Assembly: GCA_903941095.1 (NCBI GenBank)
Contig: CAJANN010000226.1
Location: 374 to 64,373, forward strand
Source of the DNA: an uncultured Rhodospirillaceae bacterium
GTDB lineage: Bacteria; Pseudomonadota; Alphaproteobacteria; Rhodospirillales; Magnetospirillaceae
Length of the DNA: 64,000 nucleotides
Direction of reading: 5' to 3'
Shown piece after piece: positions 397 through 64,000 of the stretch (positions within the stretch are counted from its first letter, which is position 1; each line of letters starts with the position of its first letter). The notes beneath the pieces were generated by a model, which was not told the DNA's origin, did no database searches, and saw nothing but the letters and a program-made list of their open reading frames with translations. The position numbers were made by a program, and so were the translations under genes.

Positions 397-1617
397 CTAA
401 ACTCCGCCAGCGTTGGGAACGGTATCCTTGGGCTGCATTTCGCAATATCCCGCCCAATCATCCATCAGCTTGCGCCGTTTCTCGAACAAGTCGCCACGAC
501 GGTAGGCGGCCTCCACCTTGTCGCCAACAGCATGGGCCAGCGCCATTTCGGCGACTTCGTGAGGGAAGTCGGTGCATTCGGCGACCCAGTCGCGGAAGGT
601 GGAGCGGAAGCCGTGGGCGGTGAGGTCGGTGCGCTTCATCCGCCGCAGGGTCATCAGCAGGGCCATGTTGGACAGGGGCTTATCGGCTTTGCCGCCCTTG
701 AACACCGGTCCTTCGCGTCCGTTCAGAGCTTTCAGAACCGCCAGCGCCGTTTCGGACAGCGGCACGCGATGCTCGCGGCCCGCCTTCATGCGTTCCGGTG
801 GAATGACCCACAGGCGCTTTTCCAGGTCGATCTCGGCCCAACTCGCCCCCAGCACCTCGCCGGTACGGGCGGCGGTCAGGATGGCGAATTCCAGGGCGCG
901 GGCGGCTGTGCCGTCCACCGCCCTCAAGGTCTTCATGAAATCGGCCATCTGGTCATAGGGAAGAGCGGCATGATGCCCTGCCTTCTGCACCTTGGCGCGA
1001 GCAGGCAGCAGGTGGTCGAGGTGGCCTTTCCAGCGGGCAGGGTTTTCACCCTCGCGATATTTGCGGACGATGGCCCAATCCAGGATCGCTTCGATCCGTC
1101 CGCGCACCCGGCTGGCGGTTTCGGTCTTGGTGGACCAGATGGGTTCCAGCGCCTTCATCACCAGGCCGGTATCCACCGCTGCCACCGATAGCTCCCCCAT
1201 GACGGGATAGGCATAGCGGTCCAGGGTCGAACTCCATTGCGCCGTGTGCTTGGCGTTCTGCCACCCGGCTTCATGAGCCTTGAGATAGGCTTCGGCGCAT
1301 TGCTTGAAAGTCATGACCTTGGCCGTGGCTGCTCTGGCGGCCAGCCGGGCTTCCTTGCGGCTGTCGATGGGGTCAACGCCCTCACGCACCAACTGGCGGC
1401 AGCGCCGGGCTTCCTCGCGGGCTTCGGCCAGGCTGACCGTGTGCAGGGCACCCAGCCCCATGTCGCGGCGGCGACCCTTCAGCATGAAGCGGTATATCCA
1501 GGTCTTGGCCCCGGCTTCGGTCACTTGCAGGTACAGGCCGCCGCCATCGGCATAGAGTCCGGGCGCGGATTTGCCGCGCACCGCCACCGCCGACAGCTTG
1601 CCGATCTCCCGCGCCAT
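397..1617 (-). CDS. P4-like tyrosine recombinase/integrase with N-terminal arm-DNA-binding domain
   Basis: N-terminus GLYADGGGLYLQV...KTWIYRF; catalytic R (TAARTGE), K (MKAGREHRVPL), HGFR, LAH and AYRRGD. Lies next to a tRNA 3' end. Start placed at MAREIGKLS (1617). Confidence 0.95.
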   Translation of the reverse strand: MAREIGKLSAVAVRGKSAPGLYADGGGLYLQVTEAGAKTWIYRFMLKGRRRDMGLGALHTVSLAEAREEARRCRQLVREGVDPIDSRKEARLAARAATAKVMTFKQCAEAYLKAHEAGWQNAKHTAQWSSTLDRYAYPVMGELSVAAVDTGLVMKALEPIWSTKTETASRVRGRIEAILDWAIVRKYREGENPARWKGHLDHLLPARAKVQKAGHHAALPYDQMADFMKTLRAVDGTAARALEFAILTAARTGEVLGASWAEIDLEKRLWVIPPERMKAGREHRVPLSETALAVLKALNGREGPVFKGGKADKPLSNMALLMTLRRMKRTDLTAHGFRSTFRDWVAECTDFPHEVAEMALAHAVGDKVEAAYRRGDLFEKRRKLMDDWAGYCEMQPKDTVPNAGGV

Positions 1618-1651
1618 GCCTTGCTCCATCACTGAACGATGGGGCAATCCT

Positions 1652-1671
1652 ACCCATCAATCCACCCATCA
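1652..1671. repeat. Candidate integrase arm-type binding sites
   Basis: Direct repeat ACCCATCA at 1652-1659 and 1664-1671, between the integrase start and the tRNA; typical position for P4-type arm sites (inference). Confidence 0.5.
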
Positions 1672-7843: not shown

Positions 7844-8260
7844 GTGACAAGCAGGATTGCGTGGAGAGACAGTTTCGCAGTCGGCGATCCGCTGATCGAC
7901 GGGCAGCACCGGGCTTTTTTCTCGGATCTTGATCAGGTCGTCGACGCCGTCGAGGGCGGTGCCCCGCGCGACGAGGTGCTGGGGTCCTTCCGCCGCTTCC
8001 TGTCGGCGCTGTCGCAGCACTTCCGCGACGAGGAAACCTTGCTGGCCCGCTACGCCTATCCCGAGCTGCGCGGTCATTCGGACGAACATACCGCCCTGCT
8101 GGCCAGCGTCACCGCCATCGAAAGCCTGCTGATGGCCAGCAACAGCCCGGTCGAGCTGAACTACGTCATCCGCACCCTGTTCGCCAGCCTGGTCGAACAT
8201 CTGGTCAGCGAGGACATGCGCTACAAATCATGGCTGCTCCGTCATACGAAGCCCGGATGA
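7844..8260 (+). CDS. Single-domain bacteriohemerythrin
   Basis: WxxxFAVGDPLIDGQH, HFRDEE, HSDEH, HLVSED di-iron ligand pattern. Confidence 0.92.
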   Translation: MTSRIAWRDSFAVGDPLIDGQHRAFFSDLDQVVDAVEGGAPRDEVLGSFRRFLSALSQHFRDEETLLARYAYPELRGHSDEHTALLASVTAIESLLMASNSPVELNYVIRTLFASLVEHLVSEDMRYKSWLLRHTKPG

Positions 8261-54235: not shown

Positions 54236-54715
54236 TTACTCCACGTCGTTGTAGAACAGGTGGTGGCCGATCTCGGCCGAAGGGTCTACCCGTCTGGCCC
54301 AGGCCGGCAGGCTGCCCCGGCGGTGATAGTGGGTGGCGCCGCCGGTGGGGTCGTCCAGGCTGCCGCCGATGGCGCGGCGGGCGATGCGGATGCAGATGCG
54401 GAACTGGCGGTCGGCCGGTCCGACCTGCCGCAGCTTGGCGGCATTGGGGTCGGTGTCGTTCCAGCACGAGAACTGCCAGGGCTTGCGGCATACCGTTTCG
54501 ACCGAATTTCCCCACCAGTACTGGCCGTTGCGCTCCTTGGCCCGGGCGACGCGGTTCAGCACCACGGCGGCCACGGCTTCCTTGCCGCGCACCGGCTCGC
54601 CGCGGGCTTCTCCCCACAGGGTGCGGGCCAGGATGTCCACCGCCGATCCCGGTGCGGGGGCGGTTTCCTGGGATTCGCGGTCGGGTTCGACGGCGATGTC
54701 GACGATCGGGTTCAT
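54236..54715 (-). CDS. Cell-wall hydrolase (SleB/Hydrolase_2 family), putative endolysin
   Basis: LARTLWGEARGE (catalytic Glu), VVLNR, WQFSCWN, GATHYH, IGHHLFY. Confidence 0.88.
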   Translation of the reverse strand: MNPIVDIAVEPDRESQETAPAPGSAVDILARTLWGEARGEPVRGKEAVAAVVLNRVARAKERNGQYWWGNSVETVCRKPWQFSCWNDTDPNAAKLRQVGPADRQFRICIRIARRAIGGSLDDPTGGATHYHRRGSLPAWARRVDPSAEIGHHLFYNDVE

Positions 54716-55017
54716 CCGCGCCCCCCGCCGCCCTGGGCGGCGTCCAGCTTGGCTTCGATCCGCACCAGATGTTCGGTCAGCCGGCGTTCGACATCCTTCA
54801 GATAGCCGGTGGTGGCATAGCTTTTCGCCACTTCCAGCTTATAGGCGGCCAGGGCTTCGCGCAGTTGCGCCAGTCCCGAGGCCAGCCTGTCCTCGATCAG
54901 GTCGTCGCGGCCGTCGCAGCTTTGGCGGTTGGTCCACACCAGCCACAGCAGGCCGCCCAGGGCCGGCAGTTCGACGGCGCTGACCCACCACATCAAATCG
55001 GCGCTCCAGTGGTCCAT
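54712..55017 (-). CDS. Small TM + coiled-coil protein, lysis-module associated
   Basis: N-terminal hydrophobic helix followed by a heptad pattern; stop overlaps the hydrolase start. Confidence 0.7.
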   Translation of the reverse strand: MDHWSADLMWWVSAVELPALGGLLWLVWTNRQSCDGRDDLIEDRLASGLAQLREALAAYKLEVAKSYATTGYLKDVERRLTEHLVRIEAKLDAAQGGGGRG

Positions 55018-55042
55018 CGCGGTTTCTCCTTGAGGATTGGGG

Positions 55043-56533
55043 TTACGGTGTGAAATCGCTGTCGGCCACCACGCCGCCGCCGCCCGGACGCCAGTCCCGC
55101 CGGTCGGCGCTGCCGGCCGGGGGGAGCCGGCCCAGGCGGACCGGCTGGGACAGCAGGCAGCCGGCGACGGCGTCCAGACCGTCGTCGCGGCACTTGCCGC
55201 CGGGCTGCCATTCGCGCATTTCGGCGACGAACGGCGTATCCCAGACCGAGCGATGGGCGTTCAGGGCTCCGGCGGCCAGGACGGCGTCGAAGGCGTCGAC
55301 GATGCGCTGGTCCTTGGCCTTGCGGCTGGCGACCTCGATCACCGCGCACGGGACCCCCTGGGCGGCCAGCTCGCGGCGCAGCAGGCCGGGCAGGAAGCGG
55401 CCCAGGCCGTTGGTTTCCAGCGTCACCGAGGGCAGGAACAGGTCGCGGGCGAATTCCGCCACCTGACGGCACAGCTGGCTGGCTTCGTCGGTGTCGGCGC
55501 GGGCCGGGTCGTGGGTCAGATAGCGGACGCGATGCAGCCAATAACCGCCCTGTTCGTCGGTGAAGACGGCGGCCACCACGCTGGAATCGCCCTTGCCGGG
55601 GGCGCCGTAGGCCGGATCCCACCAGCACGACACCGATACCAGCCGCGTTTCGCCCAGCGACAGGACCGGCAGGCGGTTGCCTTCGGCATAGGCCAGTTCG
55701 GTCTCGTACAGTTTCAGGCGGTCGGGATCCAGGCGGCCGTCGGCGATGTTGACCGGGCGCAGCATCATCTGGCTGTCGAACTTGTTGGGGCCGGTACGCC
55801 GCCGGATGCCGGCGATCCTGTCGGCGGGGAATCGTTCGGGCCAGGCCGACCGGCCCTTGCCGTCCAGCAGCGGGATTTCCAGCCGGTCGAAGCCGTCCAG
55901 GAACGGGCGCTGCTCGCCGGCCTCCAGCCGGGCCGCGGCGGCGTAGATGGTATAGAAGGAATGCGGGGTGCCGACGTAAAGCTGCAGGCCGCCCGGCACC
56001 AGGACATATTCGGTCTCGCCCAGCCGTTCGCGCAAATCCACCCGCTTGGGGGCGCTGTCGCAGGTGTTGGGGACCTCGACATCGTCGCAGATCAGGATGT
56101 CGGCGCGGCTGCCGGTGATGTTGGCGCCGATGCCCTTGGCGATCATCGACGGGTCGCGCAATTCTCCCGGCCGGTTGACGGTGAACTGGTCCGACGCCCA
56201 TTGCTCGCGCCGGGGCGGCTTCAGCCCCTGCGTCAGCGGGTGGCGTTCGACGATGCGCTTGACGTTGCGGACCATCTTCTTGGCCAGGGCGAAGTCGGCG
56301 GCCAGGACCATGATGCGCAGGTTGGGCTCGGCCATCAGCACCCAGGCGCAGAACAGGCCGACGATGGTGGACTTGCCGGAATTGCGGAAGGCCATCAGCA
56401 GCAGTTCGCGGTGGCGCCCGCGCCAGCGCGCCGCCAGCCAGCGGGCCATGCGCAAATGGTGGCGCGGCGTCGGCAGACCCACCTTCTCGTTCCAGATCCA
56501 GACGAATTCGGGAAAGTCGACGCCGTTCATCAT
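55043..56533 (-). CDS. Phage terminase large subunit (T7 gp19-like)
   Basis: Walker A LMAFRNSGKS, Walker B ILICDDVE, YVGTPH coupling motif, WWDPA and DDGLDA nuclease motifs. Confidence 0.92.
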   Translation of the reverse strand: MMNGVDFPEFVWIWNEKVGLPTPRHHLRMARWLAARWRGRHRELLLMAFRNSGKSTIVGLFCAWVLMAEPNLRIMVLAADFALAKKMVRNVKRIVERHPLTQGLKPPRREQWASDQFTVNRPGELRDPSMIAKGIGANITGSRADILICDDVEVPNTCDSAPKRVDLRERLGETEYVLVPGGLQLYVGTPHSFYTIYAAAARLEAGEQRPFLDGFDRLEIPLLDGKGRSAWPERFPADRIAGIRRRTGPNKFDSQMMLRPVNIADGRLDPDRLKLYETELAYAEGNRLPVLSLGETRLVSVSCWWDPAYGAPGKGDSSVVAAVFTDEQGGYWLHRVRYLTHDPARADTDEASQLCRQVAEFARDLFLPSVTLETNGLGRFLPGLLRRELAAQGVPCAVIEVASRKAKDQRIVDAFDAVLAAGALNAHRSVWDTPFVAEMREWQPGGKCRDDGLDAVAGCLLSQPVRLGRLPPAGSADRRDWRPGGGGVVADSDFTP

Positions 56534-56856
56534 TCATCCTCCTGAGGGTCGTCGTCGAACTCGGTCAAGGCCGCCCGGGCCTGGGCCAGCAGACGGTCGA
56601 TGCCGGTCTCGGCCGGGTCGGCGGTCTCGGCGCGGCCTTCCGCCCAGCGGACCAGCTTGAGCAGCAGTTCGACATGGGCCAGGGCGGCCTTGGCGGCGGC
56701 GTGCCAGGCGGCGAAGCCCTTGGCGTCGGCCGGCGGTTCGTCGCCGGTGAAACGTTCGTAACCGTCGAGCGCCATGCGGACGCGGGCCGGCAAGGCCCCC
56801 CGCAGGCCGGACCGCAGGGTCTCGATGTCGTCGGGCGACCATTGTTCGTCAGCCAT
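56530..56856 (-). CDS. Hypothetical protein, candidate terminase small subunit
   Basis: 108-aa helical protein with acidic tail; stop overlaps the large terminase ATG. Confidence 0.55.
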   Translation of the reverse strand: MADEQWSPDDIETLRSGLRGALPARVRMALDGYERFTGDEPPADAKGFAAWHAAAKAALAHVELLLKLVRWAEGRAETADPAETGIDRLLAQARAALTEFDDDPQEDE

Positions 56857-57115
56857 GCAACGTCCCCCGCAGCATGGCGATCCGGGCATCCACGTCGGCC
56901 AGCCACGCCTTGCCCGCTTCGGTCAGCGCGGCTTCCCGCAGACGGCGGTTGGTGACGGTGGCCTCCAGGGCGGCGATTTCCGCCAGGATGGCCCTGCGGG
57001 CGGCCTCGGCCGCCAAGGCGGGGCGGGCCGCTTCGATCTCGGCCAGTTCCGCCCCGGTCAACGGCACCTGACGCGCGTCTCCGGTTTCGGCATTCACTTC
57101 GATACGGAAGGTCAT
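56849..57115 (-). CDS. Small phage protein, candidate tail-fibre chaperone
   Basis: 88 aa immediately after the tail fibre gene and coupled to the next gene; assignment by position only. Confidence 0.5.
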   Translation of the reverse strand: MTFRIEVNAETGDARQVPLTGAELAEIEAARPALAAEAARRAILAEIAALEATVTNRRLREAALTEAGKAWLADVDARIAMLRGTLHG

Positions 57116-57117
57116 GA

Positions 57118-58944
57118 TCAGGCGCTCCTCTTGCCGCGATACAGGATGAACGTGCCGCTCACACCCGTTCCCCCGGCGTCATGAAACCGGACGGCCACAA
57201 GAACTTCCTGGGTAGAGCGGTAGCCGGAAAAAGTATCATTGCGCAATTCGCCGGTAGGGCCGTGTCTTGATGCGGTCATTCCGTATATCTTGTGGTACGC
57301 ATTGGCGGATGGGTTCGGGATGAAGACATGACCGACATAGCCGTCAGCCGTGGATGCCACGTTTGATCCATTGTTTGACAGTTTCAGCGTGGACAGACCG
57401 GAGCCGCTGTTGCCGGAACCGGGGGAAGAGCTGCTGGCCATCGCGACCATTGCTTCCTGATATCCGGATGTCTGATAGGCAGGCCCGGCAGTGCCAAAGC
57501 GGAACCCCAGCTCTTGACCTGATCCGGTATAGACGCCGTCGAAAACCACCATGTAATCGTAGCCGGAAACCAGTCCGGTGAAGTCCACGGTCGCCGCCCC
57601 GCTTGCCGTCGTGCTGCTGACGAATTCCCATGCCCCGGCACTGACAGCGGCCCAGGTCTGATCGCCGCGCAGATAGGTCGACGAACCGGCCGATCCGGAC
57701 CCGAGCCGGGCCGTGGCAATGGTCCCAGAGGCGATGTCGGCGGCGGTGTGGGTGTGCACGGCGGGTGCGGCGCCGTCCGCCTTGGCGCCCTGGGCCGCCG
57801 TGGCGTAATCCGATGCCGCCGTTGTCGCCGCCGTGCCCAGTCCCAGGCTGGTGCGGGCGGTCGCCGCGCTGGACAGGTCGGACAGATTGTTGGCCGCCGC
57901 CAGATAGCCGGCGCCCGAGACATAGGCCGCGACCCAGGCCGATCCGGTATGGACCTTCATGGCCCCGGAAGCGGTGTTGAAATAGATCGAGCCGGCCACC
58001 AGGGCGTTGCCGTCGTTGTCGACGACGGGGTCGGACGCCTGGGCGCCCAGATAGCGGTCGTCGAAGCTGTCGAAGGCGGCCAGGGTGCTGTCCCGTGCGG
58101 CCTCGGCGGCGATCTTGGCGGACGCGGCGTCGGCGGCAGACGTGGAAGCCTCGCCGGCCTTGGTGGCCGCAATGCCGGCCTGGGTGGTCGCCGTGGCCGC
58201 CGAAGCGGCAGCGGCGGTCTCGGACAGTCCAGCAGCGGTTTCTGAAGCCAGGGCGGCGCCGGCGCTGGCTTCGGCGTCCACAGCCTTGGCGGTGGTGATC
58301 CCGGCTTGCGTGGTGGCGATGGCGGCGGCGGCGCTGACGGTCGAGGCGCTGGCCGAGGCAGCGGACGCAGATGCGGACGCGGACGCCGCCGAGCCCGAGG
58401 CGGACGCGGCCGATCCGGAAGCGGCGGCGGCAGCGGCATCGACCGCGGCCAGGGTGACGGCGAATTCCGCCGGGTCGTTGGTCAGGCCCGATCCGTCTGC
58501 GTTCCAGCCGATGGCCTTGCCGGGGGCCGGCTCGGGCAGGGTCAGGTCGGCATTCGAGGCGCTGGTGGGGGCACGGGCGACGGCGCGGGCGGCATCCTCG
58601 GCCACCTGCTGGATGGCGGCGGTCTGGATGTCGAATTCATCGTTCAGGGTCTTGGCGCGGATCACGCCGTCGGCCTGGAAATCGGTGGTGCGGCCCACCG
58701 CCATGCGCCGGCGCAGGGTGATGCGGGCGCCGGCGGCCGGCGGAACGGAAAACAGCACCGAGCCGCCGGCCGAGATGCCGGCCCCCGATACCGAAAAGCC
58801 GGTCTCCCGGCGGACCGAATCCTGCCAGACTTCCATGTCCTCGGGGCGGAAGATGGGGAAGGGATAGGTGAAGGCGGCCTGCACCCCGTCGGCGACATAG
58901 GCGATGCGCGGGGCGACGGCACTGATCTGGATATGTTCTGTCAT
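57118..58944 (-). CDS. Podovirus-type tail fibre protein (608 aa)
   Basis: T7-gp17-like N-terminal anchor (YVADGVQAAFTYPFPIF...RTTDF), Ala/Ser linker, FDDRYLGA..DP..DNDGNAL motif, NNLSDL..ATARTSLGLG, HTH fibre repeat, beta-rich tip. Confidence 0.88.
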   Translation of the reverse strand: MTEHIQISAVAPRIAYVADGVQAAFTYPFPIFRPEDMEVWQDSVRRETGFSVSGAGISAGGSVLFSVPPAAGARITLRRRMAVGRTTDFQADGVIRAKTLNDEFDIQTAAIQQVAEDAARAVARAPTSASNADLTLPEPAPGKAIGWNADGSGLTNDPAEFAVTLAAVDAAAAAASGSAASASGSAASASASASAASASASTVSAAAAIATTQAGITTAKAVDAEASAGAALASETAAGLSETAAAASAATATTQAGIAATKAGEASTSAADAASAKIAAEAARDSTLAAFDSFDDRYLGAQASDPVVDNDGNALVAGSIYFNTASGAMKVHTGSAWVAAYVSGAGYLAAANNLSDLSSAATARTSLGLGTAATTAASDYATAAQGAKADGAAPAVHTHTAADIASGTIATARLGSGSAGSSTYLRGDQTWAAVSAGAWEFVSSTTASGAATVDFTGLVSGYDYMVVFDGVYTGSGQELGFRFGTAGPAYQTSGYQEAMVAMASSSSPGSGNSGSGLSTLKLSNNGSNVASTADGYVGHVFIPNPSANAYHKIYGMTASRHGPTGELRNDTFSGYRSTQEVLVAVRFHDAGGTGVSGTFILYRGKRSA

Positions 58945-58955
58945 GGTCGGGTCCC

Positions 58956-60887
58956 CTATTCCGAGAGCTTCATTTCGGTGGCGACCGCCAGCACCGTGCA
59001 GGGCAGCGGCACGTCCTGACGGATCCGCCACAGCGGCTTCAGGGCGTCGCGGGTCCAGCCGATGGCGCGGATCTTGACGTCGCCGGAAAAGACCGGCGGT
59101 GCGGCATCCAGGACATCGCGGCCATAGCGGCGGAACGGGATGGCGGTCAGGCCGCGGCCGGTGTCGATGTATAGGGCCTGGGTGTCGAGCAGGCGGAAGT
59201 TGGCGGCGACCAGCCGCACCACCGCGCCCGGCCCGGCTCCGCCGGCTCCCTGCACCACCGGCGGCAGCGGTTCGACGACATGGGCGAAGGGCAGGCCGGC
59301 ATGGATGTTGCGGGCCGGCTCCGCCAGGGTCACTGCGCCGTCGGCCACCACATGGTCGCTGATGGCGCCGTGGTCGGCCAGGACGCGGACATTGCATCCG
59401 TTCAGGTGGTCCAGACCGCTCCAGGTGGTTTTGGCGGTGGCGCTGCCGCCGGTCAGGGCGCTGTCCAGCGACAGGGATTCGTCGAAGCATTCGATGAATG
59501 TCTCGCCGCCGCGTTCGACCAGCAGATAGACCACCCCTTCCACCACCGCCACCGCCCGGAAACGGCCGTCGGTGGCATGTCCGGTCCAGGCGGTTACTTT
59601 CTCGGCGCGATAGATGGTGACGGTCGACAGGCTGCCGTCGGCCATCACCACATGGAACAGCCGGCGTCCGGGGTCGTAATCCTGGTCGACGGCGCCGTTC
59701 AGCATGTGCTTGGCGAACATCGACAGGTCCGAGGCCTGGTAGGCCTGCTCGACATCGGCGAACAGGAACTCGCGCAGGTCGCGGCCGTTGCGGGACACGA
59801 ACAAGGTGGCCCCGTCGACGTCGCGCGGCGGCACCGAGCGGTCGACGGGCGATCCCACCCGGGTCTGCCGGGTCAGCTGGATCTTGGTCGGCGTCAGCGG
59901 GTCGCCGGACACCATCCATTCGGCGCCCGAGGTGAAGACCTGCAGGTGCCGGCCGGAAAACACGGCGCGGATGGCGTTGACCTGATCGGACAGCAGGGCG
60001 AATTCGATGGACTCGTCGTCCAGCCCCTCGCCCAGGTCGAAATTGAACAGGTCCGACGATTTCGACAGCCACAGCCGGTTGGGCAGGTCGCGGCTGCCGC
60101 CGATCACCAGCCGGTCCTGATGGAAGCAGACCGAAACCGGCCAGCCGCGCACCGCCGACAGGGCCTGTTCCTCCCAGTCCTTGCTGGTGGCGGCGTTGAC
60201 CAGCGGCTGCCTGGTGGTGGCCGTCGCCTGGGTGGGCGACAGGATGGCGGCGATCTCGACCTCTTTGCCCTGCAGGCGAAAGCGCAGACCGGCATGGCCG
60301 GCGGCGAACAGCGCCGCCGAGGCGGTCAGGGTGACGGTGCCCGATGTGGCCGACGGGGTCAGCGTCACGTCGTCGGGGGCGAACTTGTGGTAGGGCTGGC
60401 GGATCACCCCGACATCGTCGACATCGTCGTCTTCGTCGGAATCGTCCTGGTAGAAGGTCCAGGGAACGATGGTCCAGGCACTGTGCGAGGTTCGGGTGAT
60501 CTTGCGCGGCGCCACGTCGGGATGGACCACCAGCAGCGTGTCGGCGGTCTGGGTCCAGTTGATCTGCCGGATCTGCGCCGCGCTCCACGGCGTGGCGAAG
60601 TCGGCGACCTTGACGCCGTCGGCATAGACGTCGGCATGCAGGTCGGTCAGCACCAGCAGATAGGTCTGTTCGGTGTTGAACTCGAAGGCGACCAGCCGGC
60701 CGGGGCCGCGGGCCCGGTCGACGAAGCGGGTGCCGGGCCGGCGGCTGACGCCGCCGATGGGGGCGATGACGACGTTGCGCAGGGTCATGGCGCCGTTGGC
60801 ATAGGCCGACAGGTCGCCGCGGCCCAGCATGTCCATGCTCAGTTCGCCGGCGGTGAAATTGGTTTTGGCCAGGGTGATCAGGCTCAT
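58956..60887 (-). CDS. Tail tubular protein B/nozzle (T7 gp12/P22 gp10-like)
   Basis: TNFTAGELS...GG-x-SRRPGTRFV, FEFNTEQTYLL, WPVSVCFHQDRL; 643 aa. Confidence 0.85.
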   Translation of the reverse strand: MSLITLAKTNFTAGELSMDMLGRGDLSAYANGAMTLRNVVIAPIGGVSRRPGTRFVDRARGPGRLVAFEFNTEQTYLLVLTDLHADVYADGVKVADFATPWSAAQIRQINWTQTADTLLVVHPDVAPRKITRTSHSAWTIVPWTFYQDDSDEDDDVDDVGVIRQPYHKFAPDDVTLTPSATSGTVTLTASAALFAAGHAGLRFRLQGKEVEIAAILSPTQATATTRQPLVNAATSKDWEEQALSAVRGWPVSVCFHQDRLVIGGSRDLPNRLWLSKSSDLFNFDLGEGLDDESIEFALLSDQVNAIRAVFSGRHLQVFTSGAEWMVSGDPLTPTKIQLTRQTRVGSPVDRSVPPRDVDGATLFVSRNGRDLREFLFADVEQAYQASDLSMFAKHMLNGAVDQDYDPGRRLFHVVMADGSLSTVTIYRAEKVTAWTGHATDGRFRAVAVVEGVVYLLVERGGETFIECFDESLSLDSALTGGSATAKTTWSGLDHLNGCNVRVLADHGAISDHVVADGAVTLAEPARNIHAGLPFAHVVEPLPPVVQGAGGAGPGAVVRLVAANFRLLDTQALYIDTGRGLTAIPFRRYGRDVLDAAPPVFSGDVKIRAIGWTRDALKPLWRIRQDVPLPCTVLAVATEMKLSE

Positions 60888-61456
60888 GACCGCACCTCGA
60901 CCAGGGGGAAGCTGGTGATGGAGGACGGCACGTCCTGCTGGCCGTCGATCAGCTTGGCGCGGCGGAACTCGTCTTCGGCCAGCCGGTGCAGGAACTCGGT
61001 GCGGCTGGTGCTTTCGGTCAGCGGGATGCAGAACTCGGCGGCCATGCGGGCGATCAGCGCCTGGTCGAAGAAGGGCGGGAACGACAGTTCGTCGGGGCGG
61101 AAGACATAGGTCAGCACCACGCCGTCCTCGACGTTGCAGTGCAGCCGCGAGGCGGCGATGCGGTAATCCAGGCCGAAGCCGCGTTCACCGACGCCGGCCG
61201 ACAGGGCGCGCAGGAAGTCGGCCGGCAACTGGTAGGCGGCGCTGTAATCGGCCACCGGCTGGGCGGCCAGACGCGGCAAGGTGACCTGCCCGGTGGCGAA
61301 GTTCCACGGATGCGACGACAGCAGGGCGTCGCGCAGGGCCGGATAAAGATTGGCGCAGACCTCGGACTCGGCGGTTCCCTCGTCGAACGAGGCGATGGTC
61401 GAGGCCCCCAGTTTCAGCAGGGCGCGCGAACACAGCGCAATGGCGGACAGGGCCAT
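60884..61456 (-). CDS. Tail tubular protein A/adaptor (T7 gp11/P22 gp4-like)
   Basis: CSRALLKLGA, LLSSHPWNFA, YQLPADFLR, PPFFDQALIARMAAE. Confidence 0.85.
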   Translation of the reverse strand: MALSAIALCSRALLKLGASTIASFDEGTAESEVCANLYPALRDALLSSHPWNFATGQVTLPRLAAQPVADYSAAYQLPADFLRALSAGVGERGFGLDYRIAASRLHCNVEDGVVLTYVFRPDELSFPPFFDQALIARMAAEFCIPLTESTSRTEFLHRLAEDEFRRAKLIDGQQDVPSSITSFPLVEVRS

Positions 61457-61520
61457 GACGGCACTCCTTGTCGGAAGAAGGCTCCGGCGGGACGGTCGGC
61501 CCCGCCGGAGGATGGATGGA

Positions 61521-61790
61521 TCAGTCGCTGTCGGCGGCGCCGACCTGGGTCATGTCGTTGACGTCGACGGATCCCGCGGCGGCGGTCGAGACGAAGAACA
61601 GGCCGCCCTTGGGGGTGGCCGCCGTCTCGGTGTTGGCGATGATGATGTCGCCGGCCCGCAGCATGTCGGCCGCCGCGTTGAAGTAACCGGCGGTGTCGCC
61701 GGCGGCGGCGGCATCGGCGGTGGTGTAGTGCCACAGGGTGAAGCCGTTGGCATAGGCCAGCACGCTGAGATCCTTGGACAGGTAAGCCAT
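61521..61790 (-). CDS. Small capsid-associated (decoration/cement-like) protein
   Basis: 89 aa, beta-rich (GFTLWHY...GYFN...LRAGDII), directly after the capsid gene; function assigned by position. Confidence 0.6.
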   Translation of the reverse strand: MAYLSKDLSVLAYANGFTLWHYTTADAAAAGDTAGYFNAAADMLRAGDIIIANTETAATPKGGLFFVSTAAAGSVDVNDMTQVGAADSD

Positions 61791-61804: not shown

Positions 61805-62623
61805 TCAGGCTTCCAGGCAGCGCAGGGACACCACGCCGACCGGATCGACGAGCGCGGCGCCCTGGCTCATCATGTTGTTGCAGAACCAGGCGGCGCGATC
61901 GCCGTGATAGGTGATCTCGCTCTTGACCTCGGCGCCCACCGCATGGGCCACCGCGGTCTTGTGGTACCAGTAGCAGTGACGGACGCCGCCGGACTTGGTC
62001 AGGCCGGAATGGGGCATCCACAGGGTGCCCAGCCAGTGCTTGGCCTGGGTGCCCTTCCACGGCAGGTCGTCGTTGCCGATATAGTCGGAATCGGCGAACT
62101 CGGGGATCTGCAGCAGGTCCGACCATTGCTTCCAGCCGACCACGGCGGTGCGCTCGCCGTCGTCGGGAACGTCGGCCTCGCCCAGCATCTCGAAGGCGGC
62201 CAGCACCTTGTCCTTGGTCAGGGCGGTGCTGCCGTCCAGGGCGTAGTTGGTGGATTTGTCCAGCTCGGCGATGATCAGTTCGTCGGTCTTGCGGCCCAGG
62301 GCATAGGCGCCGGCATTGACCAGGACGGCGCGCTCGTCGTGTTCGACCTTCAGGTCGTCCAGCTTGTCCAGCCAGTCGCCGGCGTAATAATCGTACAGCT
62401 GGCATTCGACCGAGGCGTGGTCGACGTTCATCACCGGCACCTTGCCGTGGCGGGCCTTGGTGCTGGCGGCGCCTTTGCCGACCTTCGAGAAGACGGCGAT
62501 GGCGCCGGTGACGTTGTTGCGGCTGCGCACGGTGTTGCGCAGCTTGGTGCCCTGCCGCTGATAGGCGGCGTGGACCTGGGCTCCGTAATCCTTGGAATAG
62601 GTGCTGATGACGGATGTGGACAT
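61805..62623 (-). CDS. Major capsid protein (BPP-1/podovirus-like, HK97 fold)
   Basis: MSTSVISTYSKDYGAQVHAAYQRQGTKLRNTV, AYALGRKTDELII, WLGTLWMPHSGL; RBS aaagg upstream of ATG 62623. Confidence 0.85.
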   Translation of the reverse strand: MSTSVISTYSKDYGAQVHAAYQRQGTKLRNTVRSRNNVTGAIAVFSKVGKGAASTKARHGKVPVMNVDHASVECQLYDYYAGDWLDKLDDLKVEHDERAVLVNAGAYALGRKTDELIIAELDKSTNYALDGSTALTKDKVLAAFEMLGEADVPDDGERTAVVGWKQWSDLLQIPEFADSDYIGNDDLPWKGTQAKHWLGTLWMPHSGLTKSGGVRHCYWYHKTAVAHAVGAEVKSEITYHGDRAAWFCNNMMSQGAALVDPVGVVSLRCLEA

Positions 62624-63002
62624 GTCGGTTTCCTTTGCGACGATGACGACGTGACGCCCGCTTCGGGCGGTTGCGGCCGGGGTCCCGGGTGATCCGGGCC
62701 GCCGTCCGGAGGCGGGCGGGCAGCCGCCGCCGGGCCGGGACGATGCCTGCGGGCATCGGTCCTGCGGTTGTCCGGCAGGCGGAATCGGGTGCGGTCCAGG
62801 CTCCCGCCCCGTGCGGAAGGGAGACGCACAGGGCGGGAGCGGCCGGCGCTCGACGGACGCACAAGGTGGCCCGGAGCTGCCGGACCTCGCGGACAGAGGG
62901 ATTTCAGCGAAAATTCTCTCTGTCGCGAGCCGGGAAAACGGATATGATCGGATATCGGGCGAGGGTCGCCCGCGGGCCACTCAGGGAAGCAGCGATACGG
63001 TC

Positions 63003-63695
63003 ATGAATCAGGTCGAAACAGCGGTGCGCATTTCCGGCACTCAACGCACCGAACGCATCGAGGCACGGGCCAACGCCCTGCTCGGCGATTGCCGGCGGGC
63101 TTTCCACGCGTTCGGCGAACTCGACGAACTGGCTGAAAACCTGCGCATCCTGTCCCTGAACGCCGAACTGGCGGCCGGCCGTGCCGGCGACAAGGGCCGG
63201 GCCGTGCGGGCTCTGACCCAGTACACCCGCGAGCTGGTCAACCGTCTGGCCCAGATCCGCGGCGAGATGAACCAGCTGCGTCTGCGCACCGACACCCTGT
63301 CGGAAAAGATCGAGGACGAGCTGAAGCAGCTGCGCGCCCTGGAGGAATCCTCGGCCGGCGGTTCGGAAAGCGCCGCCTTCGCCGAAATGATGCGGTCGCT
63401 GGTCGACAAGCTCGACGATCTGTCGACCAACGTCGAGGAACTGTCGCGCCGTGCGCACGGCGTCGAGGAGGTGGTCAGCCAGTCGGACTCGATCGCCACC
63501 AACATCGCCATCGAGGCCGCCGCCGCTGGCGTCCACGAAAAAGAATTCCGTACGGTGTCCGATACCATGCGCCGCTATGTCGACAATCTGCGGACCATGA
63601 TCGACGACGCTTCGGACGCCGTCCGCCGGGCCCTGGAAAAGGTCGATTCCCTGCGCCGTCTGGGCATCGAGAACCTGCAAAGCCTGCGCGGCTGA
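63003..63695 (+). CDS. Soluble MCP-signalling-domain-like coiled-coil protein
   Basis: LSLNAELAAGRAGDKGRA and IATNIAIEAAAAG...EFRTVS, two MCP hairpin-tip-like motifs; no TM. Confidence 0.75.
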   Translation: MNQVETAVRISGTQRTERIEARANALLGDCRRAFHAFGELDELAENLRILSLNAELAAGRAGDKGRAVRALTQYTRELVNRLAQIRGEMNQLRLRTDTLSEKIEDELKQLRALEESSAGGSESAAFAEMMRSLVDKLDDLSTNVEELSRRAHGVEEVVSQSDSIATNIAIEAAAAGVHEKEFRTVSDTMRRYVDNLRTMIDDASDAVRRALEKVDSLRRLGIENLQSLRG

Positions 63696-63717
63696 TCCGT
63701 TGCCGCAAGAGGGAACG

Positions 63718-63753
63718 GCAAACGGCCCCGGAAGATTTTCCGGGGCCGTTTGC
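63718..63753. terminator. Strong hairpin/probable intrinsic terminator
   Basis: gcaaacggccccggaa-gatt-ttccggggccgtttgc, 16-bp perfect stem. Confidence 0.8.
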
Positions 63754-63789
63754 TTGCCCGGACGGCGGGCGCAGCCAGGGTAGTGATAA

Positions 63790-63823
63790 GAACGTATATA
63801 GAACATTTTCCCGCCGCCGTCAA
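63790..63823 (-). promoter_or_regulatory. sigma70 promoter overlapped by an alphaproteobacterial LexA (SOS) box
   Basis: Minus strand TTGACG-N17-TATATA (63823-63795); GAAC-N7-GAAC (GAACGTATATAGAAC, 63790-63804) covers the -10. Confidence 0.75.
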
Positions 63824-63847
63824 GGCCTCGAATCACCCTGGCTTATG

Positions 63848-63941
63848 TCATGTCGGCCTCAATCGCCGGCGGGGGGCCGCCGCCGCCTTCCTCGCTTTCC
63901 CTCCGGGGCTCCGCCCCTCCGGCCGCGGCGGCGCCCTCAAG
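63848..63941. repeat. Dispersed ~95-100 bp intergenic repeat, copy 2
   Basis: Homologous to 34476-34575. Confidence 0.9.
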
Positions 63942-63952
63942 CGGCGGGGCGG

Positions 63953-64000
63953 TCAGTCGCCGTAGATCCGGCGGACGCCGGCCGAGACCTTGTCGATGAA
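63953..64000 (-). CDS. C-terminal end of a gene entering the window; candidate capsid scaffolding protein
   Basis: ...FIDKVSAGVRRIYGD-stop; resembles the C-terminal capsid-binding helix of podoviral scaffolds. Only 15 residues are visible. Confidence 0.4.
   Translation of the reverse strand, partial: FIDKVSAGVRRIYGD

Follow-up and report, generated by a model that had tools for sequence, protein, structure and literature searches.

In phage lambda, late transcription is organised as PR'-qut-tR', where a strong promoter is followed by a promoter-proximal region and a terminator, giving a short 6S RNA ahead of a long late operon; Q is encoded upstream, and PR' is not known to carry a LexA operator. 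Among the gene transfer agents (GTAs) of Alphaproteobacteria, antitermination by GafZ (GafYZ) was recently shown for the Caulobacter element CcGTA, while the Q21-like protein BrrG has been proposed to act at the promoter P_bgtA-K of the Bartonella element BaGTA. Direct control of late genes by host LexA is described for the Bacillus phage GIL01, in which P3, from which the virion and lysis operon is transcribed, contains host LexA boxes that place the late genes under direct SOS control. In coliphage 186 (tum) and CTXphi (rstA), host LexA acts alongside a phage repressor, and in Rhodobacter capsulatus LexA is required for the production of RcGTA but acts indirectly, by repressing cckA. Here, we describe a LexA-type boxed promoter at positions 63718-63823 of a 64,000-nucleotide (nt) stretch of DNA from an uncultured Rhodospirillaceae bacterium (hereafter the window), which points towards the capsid operon of a phage-like element.

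The site appears, by comparison with related loci (numbered with the prefix L), to be the capsid-proximal copy of a promoter-leader-terminator module in an approximately 18-kb element with podovirus-type head, tail and lysis genes that is widespread in Rhodospirillales. We put the probability at roughly 0.55 that it acts as an SOS-gated late promoter, the productive transcripts of which would pass a hairpin and run antisense through a gene resembling methyl-accepting chemotaxis proteins (MCPs) into the capsid operon. Particle production is thereby probably tied directly to the host SOS response, the element's own repressor notwithstanding. If confirmed, the SOS regulator of an alphaproteobacterial host would here be connected directly, and in a way legible from sequence, with the promoter of a phage-like particle's structural genes, whereas its link to RcGTA is only indirect. 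The site comprises the following features.

63817-63822, minus strand: -35 hexamer TTGACG (cTTGAC), read from the sequence; TTGAC is the best-conserved block among 63 distinct module copies
63794-63800, minus strand: -10 region, TATATA at 63799-63794 or CTATAT at 63800-63795, with a 17-nt spacer to the -35; the cTAtA core is kept across module copies
63790-63804, minus strand: LexA-type SOS box GTTCTATATACGTTC over the -10, an exact GTTC-N7-GTTC (GAAC-N7-GAAC on the plus strand)
63764-63789, minus strand: conserved initial transcribed box ttATCACTACCCTGGCTGCGCCCGCC, with the family consensus aTCAACgCCagA..TGCGtCC in the alignment of 63 distinct module copies
63756-63770, minus strand: small 5-bp leader hairpin GCCCG/CGGGC, predicted by folding, with a hairpin in the corresponding place in relatives
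63718-63753, no strand assigned: 16-bp GC-rich hairpin between AAA and TTT, with a folding energy of -48.9 kcal/mol (z = -5.2 against shuffles)

The original prediction had named TTGACG-N17-TATATA with a box over the -10, the absence of an ATG-initiated reading frame and a 16-bp hairpin about 35 nt further on with a short U-tract, and all of these are borne out by the sequence. Its identification of GTTC-N7-GTTC as the alphaproteobacterial SOS box likewise agrees with the published LexA direct-repeat motif of this class. The box spans both the -10 and the predicted transcription start, which we place near 63786-63789 on the minus strand, and no ATG, GTG or TTG start was found between the box and the hairpin. 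Although the 17 nt between the -35 and -10 hexamers fall within the 16-18 nt expected for sigma-70, a generic E. coli-style sigma-70 scan did not call the promoter, because TATATA lacks a T at its last position. Read one base leftward, the site is cTTGAC-N17-CTATAT, which we take to be the rhizobial housekeeping promoter consensus. The bare GTTC-N7-GTTC motif occurs at chance level in the window (one match in 64 kb against 1.17 expected, and at least one match in 74 of 100 shuffles), and what gives the site its significance is that relatives retain the -35 with its spacing, the two GTTC half-sites and the initial ~25 transcribed bases. One-mismatch boxes elsewhere in the element all lie within coding sequence, for example at 58924-58938 in the first codons of the fibre gene (MTEHIQI). 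A minus-strand open reading frame of 310 amino acids (aa) across the site (62904-63836) was dismissed, by codon-position GC, as an antisense artefact of a GC-rich genome.

Using the capsid protein, 226 related loci were identified in Rhodospirillales genomes, including Magnetospirillum, Phaeospirillum, Terasakiella, Caenispirillum and Azospirillum, and 80 of them were examined. The conservation upstream of orthologous capsid genes that had been proposed as a check proved to be present: exact GTTC-N7-GTTC stands at the homologous position in ten loci (L004, L005, L007, L008, L010, L055, L060, L061, L090 and L101), and among 12 distinct boxed capsid-proximal sequences both GTTC half-sites are fixed while seven different spacers occur, a variation that is constrained since the spacer also holds the -10. 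In the five Magnetospirillum-clade loci (L004, L005, L007, L008, L010), similarity to the window begins exactly at the -35, and the DNA upstream is unrelated host sequence. Their shared block consists of TTGAC-N14/15-GTTC-N7-GTTC followed by c(t)ATCAcCGCCACAcTTGCGTCC / c(t)ATCACCGCCACAcTTGCGTCC, past which come the hairpin, the convergent MCP-like gene and the capsid gene. The other five loci (L055, L060, L061, L090, L101) have no MCP-like gene, and the boxed promoter lies 245-255 nt before the capsid ATG on the same strand; the proposal that the promoter is aimed at the capsid operon is thus borne out by its position in relatives that have no intervening gene, which favours read-through. Where the capsid half stands alone beside host genes (L005, L007, L008, L010), the boxed module forms its left boundary and is the sole recognisable promoter. 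Judged by this comparison, the box is likely functional.

A nhmmer profile seeded with 15 of these sites was run on 137 loci and returned 72 module copies, every one on the strand of the downstream late operon, with 40 of them capsid-proximal and 27 portal-proximal. Capsid-proximal copies lie ~210-295 nt upstream of the capsid gene, or farther where cargo intervenes, and portal-proximal copies ~300-350 nt upstream of the portal gene. The module consensus reads aGGAAaaaa..cTTGAC-17/18-cTAtA-(7)-aTCAACgCCagA..TGCGtCC. Alignment of the 63 distinct copies revealed that the transcribed box is conserved to the same degree as the -35; a conserved TATCAa/c lies ~7 nt past the -10, followed by CgCC....TGCG, and is a candidate pause or loading site. 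A canonical intrinsic terminator stands within ~30 nt behind 24 of the 26 distinct portal-proximal copies, and the capsid leaders of Azospirillum, Terasakiella and L090 contain a strong terminator ~75-130 nt past the start. The two module positions are largely complementary, as L011-L019, L024 and L102-L104 have the portal-proximal copy only (here the scaffold gene abuts the MCP-like gene, with a strong hairpin between the two) and the window lineage has the capsid-proximal copy only. Together, the terminators of the module family and the complementary distribution of its two positions suggest processive antitermination. The comparison thus exposes a compact unit of strong promoter, conserved initial transcribed box and terminator that is reused before each late operon.

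In the window, the predicted transcript of the boxed promoter runs antisense to the MCP-like gene before it would reach the capsid leader.

63003-63695, plus strand: MCP-like gene, the soluble product of which (230 aa) contains a methyl-accepting chemotaxis signalling domain (Pfam MCPsignal, E = 1.5e-10)
62624-63002, minus strand: capsid leader and divergent intergenic region (alignment of 21 loci)

Among the 80 related loci, 38 have the MCP-like gene beside the capsid gene, and more distant loci lack it. The 380 nt that separate its start codon from the capsid ATG correspond, in alignment, to the distal portion of uninterrupted leaders. They also hold a second, partial copy of the 5' end of the leader (ccaccTTGTGCGTCCGTCGAGCG) and a probable, conserved -10 of the MCP-like gene (TATGAT at ~62943-62949, plus strand). 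The MCP-like gene with its promoter and terminator therefore looks like cargo inside a leader that elsewhere is an uninterrupted ~250 nt, and the statement that the promoter had no gene of its own has to be revised, since the capsid operon appears to belong to it. The 16-bp hairpin starts ~35 nt past the box, right behind the stop codon of the MCP-like gene, and is best read as the terminator of that plus-strand gene, which the minus-strand transcript of the boxed promoter would meet head-on. In L007, L008 and L010, the better T-run of the equivalent hairpin is found on the side of the MCP-like gene; in the window, the minus-strand tail behind the stem is UUUGCCGUUCCC / UUUGCCGUU, a poor U-tract, and a terminator scan makes no call on the hairpin.

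Within the leader of the window (62624-63002), the elements GCCGGACAACCG...CGGCCCGGCGG and GGCCGCAACCG were recognised. Family-wide, capsid leaders share GCCGGAnAACCG...CGGCCCGGCGG and GGCCAGAACCG (window 62650-62800, minus strand; L142 15714-15768). In Azospirillum, Terasakiella and L090, the first leader motif, with a conserved GGAnAACC in the loop, forms loop and stem of the strong intrinsic terminator, while the leader hairpin of the window and of Magnetospirillum is retained and its U-run is gone. The scaffold and capsid genes are separated by as little as ~150 nt and by as much as over 4 kb (L006, L021, L047, L050, L052, L057, L067, L073, L078, L090, L142), and the intervening DNA, where its contents were examined, holds signalling-type cargo, namely MCP-like genes in Magnetospirillum and GGDEF-EAL and PRC genes in Azospirillum; this varied cargo marks the junction as a hot spot. 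The identity of the first 11 leader nt of relatives (TATCACCGCCA) with the half-site of lambda OL1/OR1 was treated as coincidence, as there is no second half-site.

LexA-type boxes recur at other promoters of the family. The metagenome contig L001, which is 99.6% identical to the window and extends it rightward by 4.6 kb, encodes a divergent 211-aa CI-like repressor (HTH_26 and Peptidase_S24; phrog_4, transcriptional repressor) 5.4 kb to the right of the site, just outside the window, so that the original prediction of SOS control without a phage repressor does not hold for this element. Between the repressor gene and the small gene p121 of the same contig lies a second promoter with GTTCGCCTGATGTTC immediately past its -10. 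An exact box directly past the -10 was found in 27 of 58 distinct CI-p121 intergenic regions, the window lineage included, with many different spacers, and many other regions are one mismatch off. In several Magnetospirillum loci, a further boxed promoter (GTTCGCATTATGTTCTAAT) precedes a conserved ~93-aa gene (motif RRYDGPIPPADP) downstream of the repressor gene, which by position and control recalls LexA-regulated antirepressors such as Tum of phage 186. This promoter lies ~30-60 nt past the CI stop in L011, L013-L017 and L024, and a corresponding one is present at L141 6850. In the Azospirillum lineage (L105-L116, L131, L133, L142), GTACATAACGTGAACATGTGTTCG replaces the direct-repeat box in the repressor-p121 region; it contains the palindrome GAAC-N4-GTTC, which resembles the LexA box of the Gram-positive type.

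Based on these features, the following course of events can be proposed. In undamaged cells, host LexA bound to the operator over the -10 would keep the promoter shut, and upon DNA damage activated RecA (RecA*) would trigger self-cleavage of LexA and the promoter would open. Minus-strand transcripts would start near 63786-63789 and meet the 16-bp hairpin, where some would stop as a ~70-nt RNA, a by-product, while productive transcripts would pass the hairpin, cross the MCP-like gene in antisense and traverse the capsid leader into the genes for capsid, tail, terminase and lysis. The examples of lambda PR'-tR' and of the GTAs of Bartonella and Caulobacter suggest that read-through probably depends on an antiterminator encoded by the element, which may be loaded at the conserved initial transcribed box. 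LexA control would add to that of the CI-like repressor, which is encoded at the opposite end of the element beside an early promoter that is likewise boxed.

Comparison with the described systems shows that each shares part of this arrangement. As in lambda PR'-tR', a promoter, a conserved proximal box and a terminator precede a late operon, and in relatives the small gene p156 lies immediately upstream of the module, as Q does; unlike at PR', the module is repeated within one element and carries a LexA-type box, and no Q-like protein was found by sequence or fold. Of the features of a Q-type late promoter, a terminator between promoter and late genes is found in the module family, with a hairpin in this place in the window, and an antiterminator protein is not. 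BaGTA (P_bgtA-K and BrrG) and CcGTA (GafYZ) resemble the element in several respects: the capsid genes lie far downstream of a sigma-70 promoter close to consensus, the leader is long, attenuating and furnished with a terminator, a -10-like element, here the candidate TATCAC, follows the start, and separate loci of an alphaproteobacterium are, or here would be, coordinated. Both of these GTAs are siphovirus-derived, the studies describing them report no LexA boxes at these promoters, and their antiterminators BrrG and GafZ have no detectable counterpart here. As at GIL01 P3, a LexA-type box lies at what is here a predicted late promoter. GIL01, however, has no dedicated repressor and uses the co-repressor gp7, the LexA-like activator gp6 and a Gram-positive palindromic box, whereas the present element has a CI-like repressor, a direct-repeat box and no detected homologue of gp6 or gp7, and thus differs from GIL01-type lysogeny by LexA alone.

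The likeness to phage 186 and CTXphi lies in the LexA boxes at promoters of small genes beside the repressor gene, including the box of the 93-aa gene past CI in relatives; in these phages, LexA controls an antirepressor or early genes and not the promoter of a capsid operon. The analogy to RcGTA drawn in the original prediction is valid insofar as LexA affects RcGTA production, and in both cases the SOS regulator is connected, here by prediction, with a phage-like particle in an alphaproteobacterium. It is otherwise loose, as LexA is needed in R. capsulatus and acts indirectly via cckA, while the boxes described here lie on the element's own promoters and predict repression. What appears to be new is the combination of controls, the repeated module and the podovirus-type, sometimes split GTA-like carrier, and our literature search found no description of such a podovirus-type, sometimes split element in Rhodospirillales.

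Several observations weigh against an SOS-gated late promoter feeding the capsid operon. An exact LexA box is present in only 12 of 37 distinct capsid-proximal copies, some others being one base off and several clearly lacking a box, which makes LexA control lineage-specific, given that about two thirds of these copies have no exact box. Many relatives of the L011 type have no capsid-proximal module, and the capsid gene can hence be expressed without it. The scaffold operon ends just 133 nt upstream of the -35, and transcription arriving from there could make the boxed promoter redundant. Homologues of host lexA or recA, sought as a check on the SOS motif, were found neither in the window nor in 1.5 Mb of relatives' loci. 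For the initial transcribed box, no convincing conserved RNA hairpin and no consistent compensatory pairing emerged; a small hairpin considered there was discarded, as different clades need different pairing registers. As to a minus-strand start or read-through RNA, the only RNA matching the window is one unstranded contig, and nothing covers the promoter. Finally, in the search for an antiterminator of the Q-lambda, Q21/BrrG or GafZ type, p121 and p156 had no Pfam or PHROG match, and their structural models, although confident (predicted local distance difference test (pLDDT) scores of 84 and 82), gave no Foldseek match in the PDB with E < 0.7.

These points invite other explanations, among which a small RNA (sRNA) gene, with a damage-induced ~70-nt RNA acting in trans, as antisense or as a decoy, and the capsid gene transcribed from elsewhere, is unlikely, though the least so. 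Promoter, conserved 5' sequence and hairpin correspond to a typical sRNA layout, and portal-proximal copies end in canonical terminators 60-75 nt past the start. The public runs that hold the window are metagenomes, and the available Azospirillum RNA-seq data are unstranded assembled contigs, which cover the module and ~50-70 nt past the predicted start, break over the leader terminator and resume at about half depth through the capsid gene; this pattern would suit an sRNA, but in unstranded contigs termination and an assembly gap are not separable. Every module copy stands directly upstream of a same-strand late operon, which an independent sRNA would not need, and the conserved box shows neither a conserved secondary structure nor a compensatory pattern. 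Rfam searches of 62400-64000 at permissive thresholds returned only sub-threshold chance matches, and the U-tract of the hairpin is weak in the minus direction in the window, L007 and L008. A stand-alone unit with a conserved structure or a known family, as would be expected of a trans-acting sRNA, was thus not found. We regard it as more doubtful still that damage-induced convergent transcription over 63003-63695 serves to silence the MCP-like gene, any reach into the capsid gene being incidental. Promoter and MCP-like gene are indeed convergent on one shared hairpin in six lineages (window, L004, L005, L007, L008, L010), and the cargo gene is apparently expressed in nature: in two lake metatranscriptomes, one unstranded 256-nt contig (97% identical) covers 62975-63229, the 5' part of the gene, beginning 28 nt upstream of its ATG, an end that fits a start downstream of TATGAT at ~62943-62949. 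Against silencing as the purpose, L055, L060, L061 and L090 have the boxed promoter immediately before the capsid gene although they lack an MCP-like gene, and in L022, L028, L031 and L040 the MCP-like gene lies upstream of the module, hence in no antisense relation to it.

It is similarly improbable that the GTTC-N7-GTTC sites are operators of an element-encoded protein, be it the CI-like repressor or another factor, and not of host LexA. While a repressor gene of the helix-turn-helix (HTH) and S24 type does adjoin one boxed promoter, the motif is exactly the published alphaproteobacterial direct repeat, Cro/C1-type HTH repressors normally bind inverted repeats, and the boxes are found in either orientation at several promoters and recur in hosts whose CI proteins share no more than 50-70% identity. 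Of comparably low probability is a relic promoter of little present function, with transcription of the capsid gene continuing out of the scaffold operon or starting at an unrecognised promoter within the 380 nt between the MCP-like and capsid genes. This would agree with the proximity of the scaffold stop to the -35, with the chance-level frequency of the bare motif and with L011-type relatives, which have the same intergenic region and no capsid-proximal module. It sits poorly with a -35, both half-sites and a leader that are intact across loci differing everywhere upstream, with the status of the site as the only recognisable promoter where the capsid half stands alone, and with the loss of the portal-proximal module in the window lineage, which leaves the capsid-proximal copy as the only one. 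We therefore retain the SOS-gated late promoter with read-through into the capsid operon as the preferred reading.

The operon that this promoter would serve, and the end of the operon preceding it, are made up as follows.

61805-62623, minus strand: major capsid protein gene, 272 aa (Pfam Phage_capsid_2, E = 4e-87)
54236-61790, minus strand: rest of the late operon (codon-position GC, Pfam, PHROG), with the members listed next
within 54236-61790, next to the capsid gene, minus strand: 89-aa gene
60884-61456, minus strand: tail tubular A-like gene
58956-60887, minus strand: tail tubular B-like gene
between the tail tubular B-like and terminase genes, minus strand: fibre gene and two small genes
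55043-56533, minus strand: large terminase gene
between the terminase and cell-wall hydrolase genes, minus strand: 101-aa holin-like gene
54236-54715, minus strand: cell-wall hydrolase gene
63836-63912, no strand assigned: copy A of a direct repeat of 77 nt, located past the scaffold stop and ahead of the boxed promoter
63955-64000, minus strand: 3' end of a T7-type scaffold gene (242 aa; Pfam Phage_T7_Capsid), which continues beyond the window

Upstream, the operon p121-p156-p67-portal-Bbp19-scaffold begins with three small genes of 121, 156 and 67 aa and ends with the scaffold gene. Left of 54236, the sequence is that of an ordinary host chromosome. Element maps contain CI, two small genes and then head, tail and lysis genes only; contigs of the window lineage all break at or inside the CI gene, and IMG/VR provirus calls stop right behind it. 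In M. sulfuroxidans J10, the element is dispersed over two chromosomal loci, which is a GTA-like trait: the CI-to-scaffold half (L141) is located on JAGTUF010000006 and the capsid half (L007) on JAGTUF010000003, both are flanked by host genes, and the former carries three boxes while the latter begins with the boxed module. Taken together, we tentatively suggest a podovirus-derived, GTA-like family, not described before, with dispersable loci that may be coordinated by copies of the module. The LexA boxes on these copies and on the early promoter would make particle production a direct SOS output, and passage through the module terminators and through cargo genes in the leader would rely on a new type of antiterminator, for which p121, p156 and other small proteins are candidates. 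This overall picture is clearly less probable than the assignment of the promoter itself. Hundreds of Rhodospirillales genomes carry the element, among them those of cultured Magnetospirillum, Azospirillum and Terasakiella; cultured strains with the boxed module are Magnetospirillum sulfuroxidans J10, M. moscoviense BB-1, Magnetospirillum sp. LM-5 and Terasakiella pusilla DSM 6293. Three questions that the element raises are therefore testable in cultured strains, namely how split phage-like loci are co-regulated, whether antitermination is a general principle of GTA control and how signalling cargo is tolerated in the leader of a late operon.

Among the small proteins, p156 (L001 8409-8879) has 174 homologues, none of them a named protein, all from Rhodospirillales and including Azospirillum. 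Its invariant motifs are F-R-H-C, C-V-E and TPWQLYR, with an invariant H-C...C-E pattern. Hints of a cysteine peptidase are faint; p156 could represent a new peptidase of this class or a new regulator.

The structural region of L008 contains an additional module copy (8090-8165), with a terminator behind its leader; the box of this copy, GAACAAATCACGAAC, is inverted and sits between -35 and -10. A tyrosine integrase (window 397-1656, minus strand; Arm-DNA-bind_3, Phage_int_M and Phage_integrase) is encoded 53 kb from the element and is presumably part of another island. Copy B of the 77-nt direct repeat is located at L001 10001-10077, where it closely follows the stop of the CI-like gene; copies A and B are 74% identical, with the first 40 nt nearly identical, and bracket the 4.5-kb repressor-to-scaffold segment.

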